From positions 1 through 38,329 of the forward strand of contig JAZKZC010000059.1 in NCBI GenBank assembly GCA_045612465.1: 38,329 nt of DNA, in the 5' to 3' direction. The DNA comes from Eubacteriales bacterium (GTDB taxonomy: Bacteria > Bacillota > Clostridia > Oscillospirales > CAG-272). Positions 364-28,205 of this stretch are shown here, piece after piece. A program made the translations under genes and the position numbers. The notes beneath the pieces are model-generated. The model was not told the origin of the DNA. It saw only the letters and a list, made by a program, of their open reading frames with translations, and did not search any database. Numbering within the stretch: the stretch's first letter is position 1; every line of letters begins with the position of its first letter.

Positions 364-3300
364 TTATTTTACATTGATCGTTACCGGATCGGAGAATACG
401 TAAATTATTCCGCCGCCCATAATTGTATACTTGTGTCTGAATATAACGGTTGATGTGCCTTCGCTGTAACCGTGGATATACTTACCGTCGTAAGCGATGT
501 TTTCGTTTCCGCCGATAACGAACATTTCAACATCAGAAGCACGATCTGTTTTGCCTGCATACGTTTCTGTCTTGAGTCCGATATCAAGCGCTGTACCTGT
601 GCTTACTGTGTATTCTGTCTTATCTGTGAAAAGGAATTTCGTGTAATCGGTTACAAACTGTGCGTAGTTCGTTGTTACACCGTTTATGCCCATTTCAAAA
701 TACGTGTGGAACGAGGATGCATCGTTAAACGTCCAGGGCCATACCGTAATTCCTCTGTATGAGCAATCTGCAAGGAAGTTTCTGTTGAGGTCATCGGAAT
801 AACCGGGGTTGTACGTACAGTTGAATCTTGATGTGTAATCGTGTACCGACGTGAACGACTGTGCGTTGCAAAGGAAGCCGTTTGAAATGGTCGGTATTGT
901 TGATGTTGCATTATCCATCTGCGCCATGTGGAACGTGATGAAACAGCACTGATCCATAATGTCGTACTTGTCTATCAAGGTCTTGATAGCGGGGATTATC
1001 TCCGCTTTCTGGGATTTGATTTCGATGAACAGATTTACACCCGTGCCCTTGAATGCCTTGAAGTAATCTTCAAGCGTGGGAATAGGCTCGGAATATCCCG
1101 AATAGTAATCTACGTAGTATTGCTTGAGCTGTGCGTATGTCATCGATTCGATACCGCCCGAACCGTTTGTGGTTCTGTCGATAGAACCGTCGTGCATAAC
1201 GACTACAACGCCGTCTGTTGTCAGGTAAACGTCATTTTCGATGATGTTTGCGCCCTTTGATGCCGCCAGAAGCGAGCCTGCAATCGTATTTTCGGGAGCA
1301 AGTGACGGAACACCTCTGTGACCGATGATGTTAACAGGACGGATGTGTGTGCTGTACTGGAACATCGTCTTGTCTTCCATAATGTCCTTGAGCATATCGA
1401 CGTTTGTTGTGACAATACCGTGAGCGCCCGATGTTATGAGCTTGTAAAGCTCAACCTTTGTGTTTTCCTCTGCTCTGTACCATACCGTGCTTGCAAGTGC
1501 CGAAAGATATGCTGTGTTTCTCTGATTTGCACGGGATGCGGGGAGGAGAATTACACGGCTGTGTCCTTCGTTTGCATATTCACGTACCGTTCCGAGGTCT
1601 TTATCCGAAAGGCCTTTCGCATCGTATACGCATTTTGTGTACGTGCAAACGGCTTGCGCTGTACGGAGCTGTGTTCTGCTCGTGGATACCACGAATGAGT
1701 CACGCAGGTTGTATTGCTTCAGATAACTGCCTATTGCGTTTGCTTCGGGCAGTGAATCTATTCTGAATGCGGGGATAGTCTTGTTGCCGAAGAATTTAAG
1801 TGCGCTTGTTACGTCTGTAATGTAAGCGCCGTCAGCATTTACTACCGAGAGATCCTCTGTGATGTTGAGAATTGCAACGGCGGGCTTTGAAGTGCTGAGA
1901 TGCGCAAGATCGCCCGAGGAGTTTATCTCTGTTATCGTCGATGCTTCAACGCAGATGTTTGTGTCGATGTCTTCAACGTCTGCAATTGCCGAGATGCTTG
2001 CACCCTTGCTTATCTTGTCGAAGTTTATAGTTACCTTTACATCGTCGTATGACGTTGTAGAACCGCAGTTCTGAAGTCCGAGCTTACCTGTCGGATAAGC
2101 CGAGTCAAGTCCCGTTGCGCTGATAACCTTTGTGCCGTTGATGTAACCGTCAGAGCTGTTTGCGTACACGTCAATGGTGAATTTGTATGACTTTGCAGCG
2201 TCGAGCGCTTCTGTATACGATGTCTTTGCGTGATACATCCAGTCGCCCGTTGTCTTGTATGAAAGCTCAACGCCGTTGTTGTTGGATGTTGCCGCATTTG
2301 CTCTTATACAGTATTGCTGATACGGACAGTCGTCATTCTGTACACGGTACATAAGCGCCATCCAGCGTGCGCTGTCAGCTTTCTGTGTCATCGTAGCGTT
2401 TGTTGTGAATGTGTATTCGCCGAAATCGCCGATGAATGACGGTAACAGTATGCGCACGAATGCGGATGCTGATGACGGAGCGGCAAGCACGAGCTTACCG
2501 CCTGAAACGGTAGCTGTTCCGTTGGTAGCCTGAATTACCTTGAATGAGCTGAGATCGCTCGATGAAAAATCGTTGTAGTAAAGTGTGTACTCTGTATCAG
2601 AGGGCTTCTTTACGACGAGATATACCGTTTTTGATTTCGTTCCCGACTTCGCCGTAAGCTTGTAAACACCCTCGGATTTCGGAGAAACCGTTTTGCTTGA
2701 GCTTACCGTGATTTCGGATGATGACCAGGTGATGTTTTCTTTCGCAGTAGCAACACCGTTTTCAAATTCAACGTCATACTGTGAAAGTCTTATCGTTCCG
2801 CCTACGTTTGCGGGGATAGCAGGGCAGGAGTAAGTTGCCGTGCCGAGTGACTTCTGCTCACGGAAAACAAGCGTAACCTTGATGTCCTCGTATGATGCGG
2901 TCGCACCGCATACCTGCAAGCCGATGCGTCCCATCGAGTGGTCGTTGAGAAGCGAGGTCTGCAAAAGGAGCGAATCGTTTATGTATCCGTTTGCGGAGCT
3001 TCCGAACACGTCTACCGTGAATTTGTAGTACGTCGATGTCGAAAGCTTTGAAGAATACGATGTCTTGCCGAAATATCCCCAATCATATCCGTCTATTGGT
3101 TTATAAGCGAATTCAACGCCGTTTGATGCGGCGGCATTCGACCTTACACACATCTGATAGTAAGGATAGTTGGAATTCTGTACGCGGTGCATGATCGACA
3201 TCCATCTGGAGTCGTTGCTTGCCGCTGTGATCGCAGCATTCGTCGTTATCTTGTAATCGCCGAAGTCGCCGAGGAATGAGGGCAGAAGAACACGCACGAA

Positions 3301-4458
3301 GTTTGTGTTTGAGCCGAGAGCCGATAAAACGAGCTTGCCGTTTGAAACGGTAGCCGTTCCGTTTGTTGTTTCGATAATATCAAGCTCGTTGAGCTTCGAG
3401 GATGATGAAAAGTCGTTTGAATAAAGTACGTATTCCGTATCGGATGCGTTCTTGACGACGAGATATATCGTCTTCGATGCTGTGCTTGACTTAGCTGTCA
3501 GCTTGTAAACACCCGCTTTGCTCGGTGTTACCTTTTTGTTTGTGACAGTGATCTCTGATGATGACCACGTTATTTTTGATCTGTCCGTTCTGACATCCTG
3601 TGTCAGTTCTACGTCGTAAAGCGAAAGGTCGACCGTTTCGCCTGCGTTGGCAGGGATCGCGGGCATCGTGTATGCTATAAGATTATTGAACGATGTAACA
3701 TCGGAGTCTTCATTGTTCAATGATATGTCAGCGGATGAAACCTTGACGTTTACTCTCGTCTTTTTGTTTGAATAAATAACGTCAACGTACGTGTCACCTG
3801 CCTTGAAGCAAGTACCGGAGGGGTATGAATATGTAAATCCGTCAGCGATGGAGTGTGTTGTACCGTCTGAATATTTTACCGATACGAACATACCGAATGA
3901 CGAGAACGTTTCACCCTCTGTATAAGACGTTCTTTCGGGTGTGCCCACGATAGAAATGCTTGATACCTTTCTTGTGAGAATGGATGTTATCGCACTCTTG
4001 TCGCTTGTATTTACCTTGCCGTCGCCGTTTGCATCAGCGGCAAGTTTTGCAACACCTGAAAGGGAAATGGTGCCGTCCAGATGTTTTTGAAGACGTATAA
4101 GGTCTTTTCCGTTTACACCGCCGTCACACTGAACGTCGCCACGTATGATGACCGTTGCGGAATCAACACCGACACCGTCAACGTAAAGGGTTATGACGTC
4201 ACCCGTAACGACGTATGAACCTGTGGAGCTTGCAAGGCAGTTGCCTTCAAAGAGGTTTACAACACTCTTTACGGTTGATAACGGATCAAGTCCGTAAATG
4301 TATTTTCCCGATGACGTCTGCTCAACGTAAACACTTGAGCCGTTCAGAGGTGTCAGAAGATTTTCCGTGCCTGTTGCCATCATAAGCGATTGGGTTGCGG
4401 GAAGTATGCAAGCCAAGGCGCAAAGACAGGCAATAATGCGTTTGATTTTGTTTTTCAT
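364..4458 (-). CDS. Secreted multidomain protein with a signal peptide, dockerin-type repeat pair, Ig-like module, two tandem ~270-aa Ig-like+lectin-like modules, a degenerate GDPD-like domain and a catalytic glycerophosphodiester phosphodiesterase (GDPD) domain
   Basis: 1364-aa ORF with an N-terminal hydrophobic signal (MKNKIKRIIACLCALACILPA).
- Dockerin-like EF-hand pair: DVQCDGGVNGKDL and DANGDGKVNTSD (DNA 3979-4143).
- Residues 266-533 and 546-813 are clear paralogous repeats (PAIPAN...ITWSSSEITV...VYKLTAKS...TNGTATVS.GKLVL...LLPSF.GDFG).
- GDPD signature: IIGHRGVPSLAPENTIAGSLLAASKGANIIENDVYLTTDGVVVVMHDGSIDRTTNG (DNA about 655-1338). Confidence 0.9.
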   Translation of the reverse strand: MKNKIKRIIACLCALACILPATQSLMMATGTENLLTPLNGSSVYVEQTSSGKYIYGLDPLSTVKSVVNLFEGNCLASSTGSYVVTGDVITLYVDGVGVDSATVIIRGDVQCDGGVNGKDLIRLQKHLDGTISLSGVAKLAADANGDGKVNTSDKSAITSILTRKVSSISIVGTPERTSYTEGETFSSFGMFVSVKYSDGTTHSIADGFTYSYPSGTCFKAGDTYVDVIYSNKKTRVNVKVSSADISLNNEDSDVTSFNNLIAYTMPAIPANAGETVDLSLYDVELTQDVRTDRSKITWSSSEITVTNKKVTPSKAGVYKLTAKSSTASKTIYLVVKNASDTEYVLYSNDFSSSSKLNELDIIETTNGTATVSNGKLVLSALGSNTNFVRVLLPSFLGDFGDYKITTNAAITAASNDSRWMSIMHRVQNSNYPYYQMCVRSNAAASNGVEFAYKPIDGYDWGYFGKTSYSSKLSTSTYYKFTVDVFGSSANGYINDSLLLQTSLLNDHSMGRIGLQVCGATASYEDIKVTLVFREQKSLGTATYSCPAIPANVGGTIRLSQYDVEFENGVATAKENITWSSSEITVSSSKTVSPKSEGVYKLTAKSGTKSKTVYLVVKKPSDTEYTLYYNDFSSSDLSSFKVIQATNGTATVSGGKLVLAAPSSASAFVRILLPSFIGDFGEYTFTTNATMTQKADSARWMALMYRVQNDDCPYQQYCIRANAATSNNNGVELSYKTTGDWMYHAKTSYTEALDAAKSYKFTIDVYANSSDGYINGTKVISATGLDSAYPTGKLGLQNCGSTTSYDDVKVTINFDKISKGASISAIADVEDIDTNICVEASTITEINSSGDLAHLSTSKPAVAILNITEDLSVVNADGAYITDVTSALKFFGNKTIPAFRIDSLPEANAIGSYLKQYNLRDSFVVSTSRTQLRTAQAVCTYTKCVYDAKGLSDKDLGTVREYANEGHSRVILLPASRANQRNTAYLSALASTVWYRAEENTKVELYKLITSGAHGIVTTNVDMLKDIMEDKTMFQYSTHIRPVNIIGHRGVPSLAPENTIAGSLLAASKGANIIENDVYLTTDGVVVVMHDGSIDRTTNGSGGIESMTYAQLKQYYVDYYSGYSEPIPTLEDYFKAFKGTGVNLFIEIKSQKAEIIPAIKTLIDKYDIMDQCCFITFHMAQMDNATSTIPTISNGFLCNAQSFTSVHDYTSRFNCTYNPGYSDDLNRNFLADCSYRGITVWPWTFNDASSFHTYFEMGINGVTTNYAQFVTDYTKFLFTDKTEYTVSTGTALDIGLKTETYAGKTDRASDVEMFVIGGNENIAYDGKYIHGYSEGTSTVIFRHKYTIMGGGIIYVFSDPVTINVK

Positions 4459-4895: not shown

Positions 4896-4970
4896 GGCCC
4901 GTTGGTCAAGCGGTTAAGACACCGCCCTTTCACGGCAGTAACAGGGGTTCGATTCCCCTACGGGTCACCA
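4896..4970 (+). tRNA. tRNA-Glu (anticodon TTC), CCA encoded
   Basis: The sequence GGCCCGTTGGTCAAGCGGTTAAGACACCGCCCTTTCACGGCAGTAACAGGGGTTCGATTCCCCTACGGGTCACCA folds into a cloverleaf with anticodon loop CTTTCAC. There is one C.A mismatch in the anticodon stem. Confidence 0.9.
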
Positions 4971-5059: not shown

Positions 5060-5127
5060 ATACAAGGCTGAAGCCTTGATTTTGGTAATATCTTGTGGTA
5101 TAATCTAACCGATAAATAAGAATTTGT
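5060..5127 (+). promoter_or_regulatory. Repeated promoter module, copy R1 (hairpin overlapping -35, extended -10, shared leader)
   Basis: atacaaggc-tgaa-gccTTGATT (-35 at 5076-5081), a 17-nt spacer, TGG-TATAAT (5099-5104), then ccgataaataagaatttg. Homologous modules occur at 22674-22744 and on the minus strand at 27889-27935. Confidence 0.6.
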
Positions 5128-22259: not shown

Positions 22260-22309
22260 CGGTTAAAACGGTTGAATATCAAAAAAAAATATTTTTTTTG
22301 AAAAAACTC

Positions 22310-22338
22310 TTGATTTTTTCGATTTGTTGTGATATAAT
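22310..22338 (+). promoter_or_regulatory. Sigma-A promoter of tRNA-Ser with upstream A/T tract
   Basis: TTGATT (22310-22315), a 17-nt spacer, then TG-a-TATAAT (22333-22338). It is preceded by an A9-TA-T8 tract (UP-element-like). It strongly resembles module R2 at 22690-22718. Confidence 0.6.
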
Positions 22339-22359
22339 ACACGAGTATTCAACCGATAT

Positions 22360-22450: not shown

Positions 22451-22452
22451 AC

Positions 22453-22492
22453 AAAAAACGCACTTTTGTCTACTGACAAAGGTGCGTTTTTT
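22453..22492 (+). terminator. Rho-independent terminator of tRNA-Ser
   Basis: aaaaaacgcacttttgtc-tact-gacaaaggtgcgtttttt forms a long stem followed by a T-run. Confidence 0.8.
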
Positions 22493-22493
22493 G

Positions 22494-22667
22494 AATGATG
22501 TTTGCCTGTCACGCAAATGATGTTGGCTTCGCCAATGATGACGGCTTCGCCTAATGATGTGTGCCTGTGGGCACATAGGGACAAACAGCGCATCATTGCG
22601 GAATGAAGTGGAACAACATCATATTTGCGAAGCAAATGCATCATATCGCCGCAGGCGATGCATCATT
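22494..22667. repeat. Heptamer/hairpin array A: 4x AATGATG then 4x CATCAT(T), separated by short hairpins of differing sequence
   Basis: AATGATG occurs at 22494, 22516, 22534 and 22553. CATCAT(T) occurs at 22591, 22617, 22639 and 22661. Hairpins lie at 22501-22517, 22523-22535, 22560-22575, 22623-22637 and 22645-22659. Confidence 0.7.
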
Positions 22668-22673
22668 GAAGAC

Positions 22674-22744
22674 ATACAAGGCTTACGCCTTGATTTGTTT
22701 ACGATAGTGTGATATAATAAACTCACTGATAAATAAGAATTTGA
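22674..22744 (+). promoter_or_regulatory. Repeated promoter module, copy R2
   Basis: atacaaggc-ttac-gccTTGATT (-35 at 22690-22695), a 17-nt spacer, TG-a-TATAAT (22713-22718), then ctgataaataagaatttg, the same leader as R1. Confidence 0.6.
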
Positions 22745-23321: not shown

Positions 23322-23451
23322 ATACTTGTTTGTTCACAAGCAAAGCGGCTTGAGATTAACAAATTCCAATTTATCGAATGGGAACACTTGGTGTACTTTT
23401 AGTCGTTCTTACCTGCATTTACGCACCGTTTGTGCGCTTCTTCGCAGCGAA

Positions 23452-23480
23452 AGGAGCAAGTCATATGACTTGCTCTTTTT
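23452..23480 (+). terminator. Rho-independent terminator after the flavodoxin-like gene
   Basis: gagcaagtca-ta-tgacttgctc followed by ttttt. Confidence 0.75.
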
Positions 23481-23486
23481 GCAACT

Positions 23487-23632
23487 AAATCCACCCTTGC
23501 GGGTGGGTGAAATCATCTTCGATGATGAAATTCCCCACGGAAATGAAATCTGCCTCGACGGCGAATGGGTGGATTTAATTTCATCTGAAGCCGCAGGCTG
23601 AAGATTTCATCCGAATAAAGTGAGGATTTCAT
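23487..23632. repeat. Heptamer/hairpin array B: 3x RTGAAAT then 3x ATTTCAT with interleaved hairpins; inverted homologue of array C
   Basis: RTGAAAT occurs at 23507, 23525 and 23543. ATTTCAT occurs at 23578, 23604 and 23626. Hairpins include ccaccc-ttgc-gggtgg (23491-23506), catc-ttc-gatg (23514-23524) and tcc-ccac-gga (23532-23541). There is also a 10-bp long-range pair, aaatccaccc (23487) / gggtggattt (23567). Confidence 0.75.
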
Positions 23633-27957: not shown

Positions 27958-28085
27958 GTGAAATATTCGGCGATGCCGAATGTGAAATTAAATCCACCCA
28001 TCCGCCTTCGAGGCGGATTTCACCCAACGAAGTTGGATTTCATCGTCGAAGACGATTTCACCCACCCGCAAGGGTGGATTTAATT
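27958..28085. repeat. Heptamer/hairpin array C (inverted copy of array B)
   Basis: On the + strand, GTGAAAT occurs at 27958 and 27982, and ATTTCAC/T at 28017, 28037 and 28055. Hairpins:
- attcggc-gat-gccgaat (27965-27981)
- tccgcct-tcg-aggcgga (28001-28017)
- ccaac-gaa-gttgg (28024-28036)
- cgtc-gaa-gacg (28044-28054)
- ccaccc-gcaa-gggtgg (28062-28077). Confidence 0.75.
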
Positions 28086-28086
28086 G

Positions 28087-28118
28087 AAAAACAGACTTGT
28101 CGAAACAAGTCGGTTTTT
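28087..28118 (-). terminator. Rho-independent terminator of the tRNA-Thr/Tyr operon
   Basis: The minus strand reads aaaaaccgacttgt-ttcg-acaagtctgttttt followed by T-rich sequence. Confidence 0.75.
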
Positions 28119-28119
28119 C

Positions 28120-28205
28120 TGGTGGGGGAAGGTGGATTCGGACCACCGAAGTGAATGCACTACAGATTTACAGTCTGCCCCCTTTGGCCGCTCGGGAATT
28201 CCCCC
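28120..28205 (-). tRNA. tRNA-Tyr (anticodon GTA), long variable arm, CCA encoded
   Basis: The reverse complement GGGGGAATTCCCGAGCGGCCAAAGGGGGCAGACTGTAAATCTGTAGTGCATTCACTTCGGTGGTCCGAATCCACCTTCCCCCACCA folds into a class II cloverleaf with anticodon loop CTGTAAA. Confidence 0.9.

Follow-up and report, generated by a model that had tools for sequence, protein, structure and literature searches.

Gut-1-type hairpin arrays in an Oscillospirales contig as copies of a two-armed, terminator-attached element

Two intergenic arrays of short hairpins in a contig from an Eubacteriales bacterium of the Oscillospirales (GenBank assembly GCA_045612465.1, contig JAZKZC010000059.1, positions 1 to 38,329; this whole stretch of 38,329 nucleotides is called the window herein) raise the question of what kind of element keeps its stems paired while their sequences change. 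Array B (23482-23632, + strand) and array C (27958-28086, - strand) are inverted homologues of one another, and a first-pass annotation had read the differences between them as structure-preserving and had treated them as bracketing the putP, FGGY kinase and XRE genes that lie between them. We found that the arrays are not private to this locus, but are members of a described Rfam family, Gut-1, of which other genomes contain more than 120 copies. We are close to certain that B and C are copies of the Gut-1 element with the full layout described below.

Family identity and layout of arrays B and C

A repeat search of the window recovered the relationship between the two arrays as a pair of inverted repeats, 23477-23531 with 28037-28091 (55 nt, 93% complementary) and 23544-23583 with 27983-28022 (40 nt, 93%). 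When B was aligned by MAFFT with reverse-complemented C, the identical blocks of 29 nt (23486-23514 in B) and 19 nt (23565-23583 in B) that had been noted previously were confirmed, and the differences proved to lie only in the hairpin slots. Each of the proposed structure-keeping changes was also confirmed: CATC-TTC-GATG in B versus CGTC-TTC-GACG in C, TCCCCACGGA versus CCAACTTCGTTGG, CTGCCTCGACGGCG versus CCGCCTCGAAGGCGG, and AGCC-GCA-GGCT versus ATTCGGC-ATC-GCCGAAT. The long-range pairing AAATCCACCC/GGGTGGATTT reported for C (27990-27999 / 28072-28081) is likewise present, and both strands of C adopt it in their minimum-energy RNA folds. For B and C, on each strand, the fold was better than those of dinucleotide shuffles (z = -3.4 to -6.7).

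Array C matched the Gut-1 model (RF01706) with a score of 79.4 bits (E = 1.6e-14; 28012-28086, - strand) and array B with a score of 62.3 bits (E = 3.3e-10; 23482-23554, + strand), both above the gathering score of 50 bits, and the three consecutive (G)UGAAAU-joined hairpins with covarying stems that characterize the model are present in both. A further 18 related loci contained 23 Gut-1 matches above the gathering score. Gut-1 was described in 2010 by Weinberg et al. as a non-coding RNA motif found only in the human gut, with 43 sequences, a seed from gut metagenomes, and no organism or function (PMC2864571). The Rfam model comprises three GUGAAAU-joined hairpins over 77 nt and is filed as Gene; sRNA (small RNA), and no later work on Gut-1 was found in the literature. 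When one genome per species was searched with the pattern of the first hairpin, AAATCCACCC...TGGGTGAAAT, at least 120 loci were obtained, nearly all of them in gut metagenome-assembled genomes (MAGs) of Oscillospirales; among the matches listed were Oscillospiraceae, Acutalibacteraceae, Faecousia and Ruminococcus MAGs from gut samples, mostly ruminant. The orphan motif therefore gains a host, the Oscillospirales, and a context, the terminators of tRNA, tmRNA and other genes. Gut-1-type arrays occupy a visible share of the intergenic DNA of these abundant gut Clostridia, at variable tRNA-proximal regions.

In viral contigs the same first-hairpin pattern was found at 2 loci among 2.9 million contigs, and the Gut-1 element is chromosomal, not viral. 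A broader DNA pattern of three linkers gave mostly chance matches on viral contigs, the sole real copy among the matches listed being that in L041 (5180-5440). This copy is without an upstream terminator; behind it stand two short tracts of tandem repeats (GGTAACTTGCC x4 and CTATCTGCTATC-type).

The layout of the element was derived from an alignment of 126 copies, 109 of which were parsed by regular expression. It is 150-180 nt long and consists of a terminator hairpin (H0), a left arm, a centre and a right arm. The left arm contains four short G+C-rich hairpins, H1 to H4, joined by RTGAAAT; the 5' arm of H1 is the box AAATCCACCC, and three RTGAAAT linkers follow H1 and separate H2, H3 and H4 in 105 of the 109 parsed copies. 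The centre, GGGTGGATTT, is complementary to the box and, since it repeats the 3' arm of H1, can pair with the left end to form a long-range helix, P0. In the right arm H5, H6 and H7 are separated by ATTTCAY, the reverse complement of the forward linker, with four such reverse linkers in 82 of the 109 parsed copies; forward and reverse linkers are equal in number. Conservation resides in the linkers and the box. The hairpins are free in sequence but maintain their pairing, with 19-53 distinct sequences per variable slot (H2-H7) and differences even between copies within one genome. Within Gut-1, forward and reverse linkers change in concert from one subtype to another (GAAA/TTTT, 21 copies; GGGG/CCCC, 18 copies). 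A register-specific pairing of forward with reverse linkers was considered and set aside, as all registers fit equally and are indistinguishable.

The Rfam model thus covers the left arm only: 77 nt filed as an sRNA, compared with the 150-180 nt, two-armed and terminator-fused element found here. The flanks of the 2010 seed alignment themselves contain upstream terminators, one tRNA end and reversed linkers, including a GUGAUAU/AUAUCAC variant. The catalogued motif is incomplete, being one arm of a larger two-armed element that has sibling families. The polarity flip of the linkers inside each array, together with the opposite-strand loop pattern described below, adds to what had previously been described for B and C.

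Array C begins 33 nt past the CCA end of tRNA-Tyr (28120-28205, - strand; ARAGORN and Rfam tRNA), the last gene of a tRNA-Thr/tRNA-Tyr pair. Its H0 (28087-28119) is a bidirectional intrinsic terminator in the terminator scan, with an A-run, a stem at 28094-28111 and a T-run. The left arm (28002-28086, - strand) includes the Rfam match and comprises L0 and the box (the reverse complement of 28072-28086), H1 (28062-28077), H2 (28044-28054), H3 (28024-28036) and H4 (28002-28016), with the - strand linkers GTGAAAT, ATGAAAT and GTGAAAT. The centre (27990-28001, - strand) pairs with the box at the left end (28072-28081), and the resulting P0 competes with H1. The right arm (27958-27989, - strand) has two ATTTCAC reverse linkers around one hairpin (27965-27981). 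In array B, H0 (23450-23481, + strand; stem 23454-23475, T-run 23476-23480) is an intrinsic terminator that follows a gene carrying a Flavodoxin_5 domain. The left arm (23482-23566, + strand), delimited by the Rfam match and the alignment with C, contains the box (23487-23496), H1 (23491-23506), H2 (23514-23524), H3 (23532-23541) and H4 (23550-23563), with linkers starting at 23507, 23525 and 23543. The centre, GGGTGGATTTA (23567-23577, + strand), is complementary to the box, and the right arm (23578-23632, + strand) has ATTTCAT linkers at 23578, 23604 and 23626 and hairpins at 23585-23603 and 23611-23625. Compared with the three right-arm hairpins of the canonical element, B has two and C has one.

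Selection on the fold and exchange between copies

In a set of 80 full-length copies, all distinct, pairing at the outer four positions of the H2, H3 and H5-H7 stems was 82-90%. When the 3' arms were swapped between copies pairing fell to 48-59%, and 0 of 1000 shuffles reached the observed value. Each stem position showed two to five pair types across these copies. RNAalifold applied to 48 copies detected double-sided changes in 12 of 28 pairs and included helix P0 in the consensus. The pair flanking P0 covaried in the same 48 copies (UA 37, GC 7, UG 3, GU 1) and was compatible in 79 of the 80, while in variants P0 is replaced as a whole, by AAATTCGCC/GGCGAATTT in locus L243 and by GATGTTTGC/GCAAACATC in the ATGATG family described below. 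These results make it very probable that the hairpins are under selection, and the compensatory changes between B and C are a local expression of a pairing rule that holds across the family. The first-pass annotation had offered two causes for such covariation. Selection on the fold was upheld by the pairing test on 80 copies; for a mechanism that creates palindromes in fixed slots we found no evidence, and arms are swapped as blocks.

The identical 29-nt and 19-nt blocks could also be expected if B and C were recent duplicates that had drifted at random and kept their hairpins by chance. This account conflicts with the confinement of the differences to hairpin slots in which pairing is kept, and with the same pairing rule across 80 distinct copies relative to partner-shuffle controls. 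As the blocks are conserved in more than 120 genomes, they are no sign of recency either. Recent duplication with random drift is excluded by the family alignment, the partner-shuffle controls and the RNAalifold covariation, and we consider its probability to be practically nil.

Exchange between copies takes place at the level of whole arms. Within one MAG, loci L148 and L173 share a left arm and L124 and L148 share a right arm, and array units have been gained or lost between copies. Tandem duplicates of CCA-terminator-array units were seen in L143, L155 and L233, and in L189 the centre is duplicated through an internal duplication of the H4-centre-linker segment. An invertible left arm, acting as a box/centre switch, was also considered and rejected, as no inverted-state copy was present in 0.9 Mb of loci, a sample that is biased towards one state.

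Exchange of arms between copies elsewhere, and the 55-nt and 40-nt inverted blocks of 93% complementarity common to B and C, might suggest that the two arrays recombine as inverted repeats and invert the 4.3-kb putP-FGGY-XRE segment between them, as the bracketing noted in the first-pass annotation would imply. Orthologous loci (L241-L244) were retrieved through PutP homologues, and putP-FGGY was inverted in none of these four related contigs. The orientation of putP-FGGY relative to tRNA-Tyr and GFO in L242 and L243 is as in the window; no arrays surround putP in L241 or L244, and none precedes it in L242. Moreover, each array is accounted for by its own upstream terminator, merely following that of the gene before it. 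We therefore judge an inversion through B and C to be highly improbable, and the bracketing of putP-FGGY-XRE, which had been thought meaningful, looks incidental.

The same loci also differ in which array stands at one site. In L243, a close relative (95% amino-acid identity for FGGY and 91% for GFO), tRNA-Tyr is followed not by C but by an ATGATG array nearly identical to array A of the window, and beyond this by an unrelated gene and a Gut-1-type array with a different box. In L242, which is of the same species as L243, tRNA-Ser has no array. We also rejected the idea that a block of flavodoxin gene and array had moved, or been inverted, between tRNA-Ser and tRNA-Tyr: the 194-aa and 207-aa genes of L243 are unrelated by BLASTP to the flavodoxin and XRE genes of the window, and what is shared there is limited to the array modules and a 44-nt intergenic block. 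The 44-nt block, CGTTCTTACCTGCATTTACGCACCGTTTGTGCGCTTCTTCGCAG (window 23402-23446), lies just upstream of the array B terminator, and is almost identical upstream of an array in L243 (~4905-4950, - strand), with neighbouring genes that are unrelated by BLASTP.

Loop strand, genomic setting and possible role

Each hairpin was read on the strand that carries its linkers as ATTTCAY, bottom in the left arm and top in the right. On this strand GNA triloops outnumbered TNC triloops by 81 to 2 and GNNA tetraloops outnumbered TNNC tetraloops by 70 to 0, and 149 of the 151 GNA/GNNA loops were closed by 5'C-G3'. At the third base of GNNA, 36 purines stood against 34 pyrimidines, and hence GNRA is not preferred. 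Tandem internal G.A mismatches fell on the same strand (77 G.A versus 3 C.T in H5-H7), and in the left arm the mirror-image C.T pairs occurred in H3, on its top strand. GCGNAGC and GCGNNAGC are extraordinarily stable DNA mini-hairpins whose stability depends on the C-G closing pair (PMC13037366, PMC3201870), and the loops of the arrays match this cGNAg/cGNNAg pattern, with no purine requirement at the third position. Since the loops lie on the ATTTCAY strand in both arms, the favoured strand flips at the centre and, within the left arm, runs antisense to the Rfam model. This strand flip raises the possibility that the structure is used as DNA; judging from loop type, we regard the chances that DNA, not RNA, is the folded form as evenly balanced. 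It also suggests caution, in that catalogues of structured RNAs may hold palindromic DNA elements.

Mini-hairpins of the d(GCGNAGC) and d(GCGNNAGC) types are known from the early promoters of phage N4 and from single-strand initiation signals, namely that of the phage G4 origin and the two of the RSF1010 origin, ssiA and ssiB (PMC13037366). The arrays resemble these signals in the cGNAg/cGNNAg loop with its closing pair, present on one strand only. They differ in that the known signals are single phage or plasmid origin or promoter sites served by known enzymes, whereas the arrays have seven or eight hairpins and are chromosomal, terminator-linked and multi-copy. The two signals of RSF1010, ssiA and ssiB, lie on opposite strands, which would compare with the two arms found here.

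The genomic setting of the element is consistent across copies. A hairpin with a T-run lies directly upstream of the array in 99 of 121 copies, and 97 of these 99 also have a 5' A-run and are thus bidirectional; CCA precedes 83. In half of the alignment (63 of 126 copies) the element begins 33-51 nt past a same-strand tRNA or tmRNA gene, counted from the 3' end of the gene, with 15 tRNA types represented, and in the window C follows the tRNA-Thr/tRNA-Tyr pair and B the flavodoxin-domain gene. Downstream of the array, 45 loci have a promoter with a co-directional gene and 31 have a convergent gene; in the convergent contexts the array sits between two terminators. A promoter scan at B and C found no promoter between terminator and array and none of the array's own. 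The terminator scan flagged H0 of C on both strands and H1 as terminator-like on the opposite strand, but not the hairpins H2-H7, which are followed by ATTTCAY. A reading of the linkers as sigma-70 promoter hexamers was rejected, as the promoter scan flagged none and the A2 of the -10 hexamer is missing.

Some of the CCA ends are displaced tRNA 3'-end fragments, with the intact tRNA 190-270 nt further upstream (L137, L150), which suggests that other DNA has inserted between the tRNA and a resident array. At L137 (2290-2320 and 2527-2600) and L150 (2244-2317 and 2505-2520), ~200 bp inserted between the intact tRNA and the terminator-array module are bracketed by directly repeated copies of the tRNA-Pro 3' end (27 nt and 15 nt), which look like remnants of integration at tRNA 3' ends. 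Reverse-oriented T-arm fragments (GGACTTGAACC) were seen further downstream in several loci.

The Rfam classification implies an independently expressed sRNA, which would use its tandem hairpins and GUGAAAU linkers to bind, in trans, a protein or other RNAs. The family match itself, covariation that the curators judged convincing, strong folding z-scores, and stems that can each be extended by A-U and U.G pairs on the RTGAAAT strand of the Rfam model are consistent with this. On the other hand, the motif begins immediately after a terminator with no promoter in between, and convergent contexts place it between two terminators. The linker polarity reverses midway, for which a repeated RNA motif bound by protein would have no use. 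In the modelled arm the asymmetric loops lie antisense to the Rfam strand, and they show no GNRA bias. Taken together, the DNA-type loops, the missing promoter and the switch in polarity speak against a conventional sRNA, which we consider quite improbable.

As the best explanation overall we tentatively favour a Gut-1 element that would work in cis, whatever the direction of approach, as a structural module where transcription units end. It would extend the terminator and insulate transcription-unit ends by blocking or trapping read-through from both sides; judged from sequence and position, such a barrier or insulator function is possible but doubtful. Since the loops lie on the strand that runs 5' to 3' away from the centre, either strand, once single-stranded, would present one arm of stable mini-hairpins, and this would hold for the RNA or the displaced DNA strand of a polymerase arriving from either side. 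Single-stranded DNA would probably adopt the hairpins no less than RNA. Bidirectional intrinsic terminators are the closest familiar parallel: H0 is one, H1 is terminator-like on the opposite strand, and the two-fold polarity and location at transcription-unit ends are shared, the difference being that H2-H7 are followed by ATTTCAY and have no U-run.

Several points weigh against this explanation. Apart from H0 and H1 the hairpins are without U-runs, and so are not classical terminators. The barrier role is read from position and anatomy only, and a barrier has no obvious need of 6-7-nt linkers that are conserved across families and homogeneous within an array; such family-specific linkers point to a sequence-specific partner. 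With regard to DNA as the folded form, the argument from the loops draws on published thermodynamics, nearest-neighbour energies did not separate the strands, and the additional A-U and U.G pairs favour the Rfam strand. Finally, the sample was ascertained by one box pattern and is composed of MAG contigs.

Sibling families and alternative readings

We used a generic detector that reports three or more occurrences of a 6-mer, spaced 12-32 nt apart, when three or more of its reverse complement follow. Within the window, array B and a further array, A (22494-22667), were identified, but C was missed because its right arm is short. Including its bidirectional terminator, array A occupies 22451-22667 (+ strand) directly after tRNA-Ser. 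Four ATGATG linkers with hairpins are followed by a centre complementary to the start and by a second arm of four CATCAT linkers and GAA/GCA-loop hairpins. It had no match in Rfam even at E<=1, and is a sibling family of the same two-armed design, not a Gut-1 match. Related loci contain further families with TGATAT, TCATCA and ATGAAG linkers, so that five linker families share the design, and several of them coexist in one genome. All sibling examples inspected follow a terminator and show the box-centre complement, with loops of the TTC type in the first arm and of the GAA/GCA/GNNA type in the second. Comparison of the linker pairs (GTGAAAT/ATTTCAC, ATGATG/CATCAT, TGATAT/ATATCA, TCATCA/TGATGA and ATGAAG/CTTCAT) indicates that forward and reverse linkers change together.

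This concerted change, between families and between subtypes, would be expected if the arrays were bound as double-stranded DNA, with the 6-7-bp linkers serving as four direct and four inverted protein-binding sites ~20 bp apart. The binder could be a nucleoid, partition-like or regulatory protein, and the linker families could serve paralogous proteins. The equal numbers of forward and reverse linkers, their homogeneity within an array, and their far stronger conservation relative to the hairpins also fit this reading, and the ATTTCAC/GTGAAAT linkers presumably resemble parS and Noc-binding half-sites. However, it leaves the covarying hairpin spacers and the strand-specific stable loops unexplained, the half-sites are never juxtaposed as a palindrome, and no candidate protein was identified. 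We regard a protein-binding array of this kind as improbable.

The coexistence of several linker families in one genome also bears on a second reading, in which the arrays are selfish or neutral repeats, comparable to repetitive extragenic palindromes (REPs) and bacterial interspersed mosaic elements (BIMEs), that occupy silent gaps after terminators and have no host function. They would spread by recombination, gene conversion or an HUH-type single-strand enzyme that recognizes the hairpins and linker. Many of the observations above fit this reading: multiple copies per genome, the mosaic arms of L148/L173 and L124/L148, tandem CCA-terminator-array modules, gain and loss of units, the duplicated centre, the different array families at the orthologous post-tRNA-Tyr site in relatives with 91-95% identical flanking proteins, and DNA-type loops suited to recognition of single-stranded DNA. 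Against it, no transposase was found beside the arrays, and neither a target-site duplication nor an empty site has been documented. The fixed orientation to the terminator and the tight composition of 4+3 hairpins and 4+4 linkers are unusual for decaying selfish DNA, the hairpin sequences vary among slots and copies in a manner unlike REP, and the displaced tRNA 3' fragments of L137 and L150 suggest that the array is resident DNA into which other elements insert. A selfish or neutral repeat is, in our view, unlikely, but it is a reading to be taken seriously.

The likeness to REP and BIME extends to several features, as both are extragenic, palindromic, multi-copy and clustered, occur after gene 3' ends with units in both orientations, and are associated with recombination. 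In REP, known from Enterobacteria and Pseudomonas, the palindrome itself is conserved, has a 5' GTAG and is accompanied by a cognate RAYT transposase. In the arrays the palindromes vary, the short linkers are conserved, and the orientation to the terminator is fixed. The feet of the palindromes are RTGAAAT or ATTTCAY, not GTAG, and a RAYT did not turn up, although no genome search was aimed at RAYT. The ToxI-like type III antitoxin RNA arrays are similar in having tandem short structured repeats beside a terminator; ToxI consists of identical direct repeats followed by a toxin gene, whereas here the units vary, the polarity flips and there is no adjacent toxin gene. An integron attC or cassette array was rejected: there are no GTTRRRY cores, B and C are mutually inverted, and in all cases examined the arrays follow terminators and not cassette boundaries. 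No integrase was present among the window proteins examined.

Gut-1 and at least four sibling families (ATGATG, TGATAT, TCATCA and ATGAAG linkers) may form a class of bacterial chromosomal element of their own, which has gone unrecognized. Its members would be terminator-attached, two-armed DNA mini-hairpin arrays under selection for folding as single-stranded DNA, with opposite strands favoured in the two arms and with linkers read by a sequence-specific factor, and would not be sRNAs. We offer this as a rather speculative proposal. If it is true, such arrays could play a part in replication-transcription traffic where tRNA and tmRNA genes lie, or serve as terminator cassettes that can be exchanged.

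A number of further features were observed around the arrays and elsewhere in the window. In at least seven loci with different tRNAs (L129, L130, L135, L152, L207, L238 and L239), the array is followed immediately by an extended -10 promoter, behind which lies a small gene whose product belongs to the 23S rRNA-intervening-sequence protein family (PF05635, four-helix bundle), an arrangement that is degenerate in L139 and L157. Many arrays are followed by a conserved module of ~60 nt that has no Rfam match and consists of a near-palindrome, GTAAGAGTTCGAATTCATAC, and then GCAAAAC..GAAAATATCTTTTTTGTAGCCCATAGACA, often with another terminator next; examples are L123, L128, L138, L148, L150, L154, L202, L213 and L218. 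In the window itself, an open reading frame of 1364 aa (364-4458, - strand) has internal direct repeats with a period of ~840 nt and presumably encodes a repeat-domain surface protein; an exact-sequence look-up of three window proteins returned no record. A conserved promoter-like module, CTTGATTT...TGTGATATAAT and then ATAAAC/TC..GATAAATAAGAATTTG, occurs in three copies in the window (5075-5108, 22309-22342 and 22689-22722), is also recognizable at 5100-5126 / 22717-22743, and precedes unrelated genes or adjoins tRNA loci. Comparable promoter and 5'-leader modules, for example GCTTTTATGCTATAATAC...GGCGGTGAT, follow arrays in other genomes.

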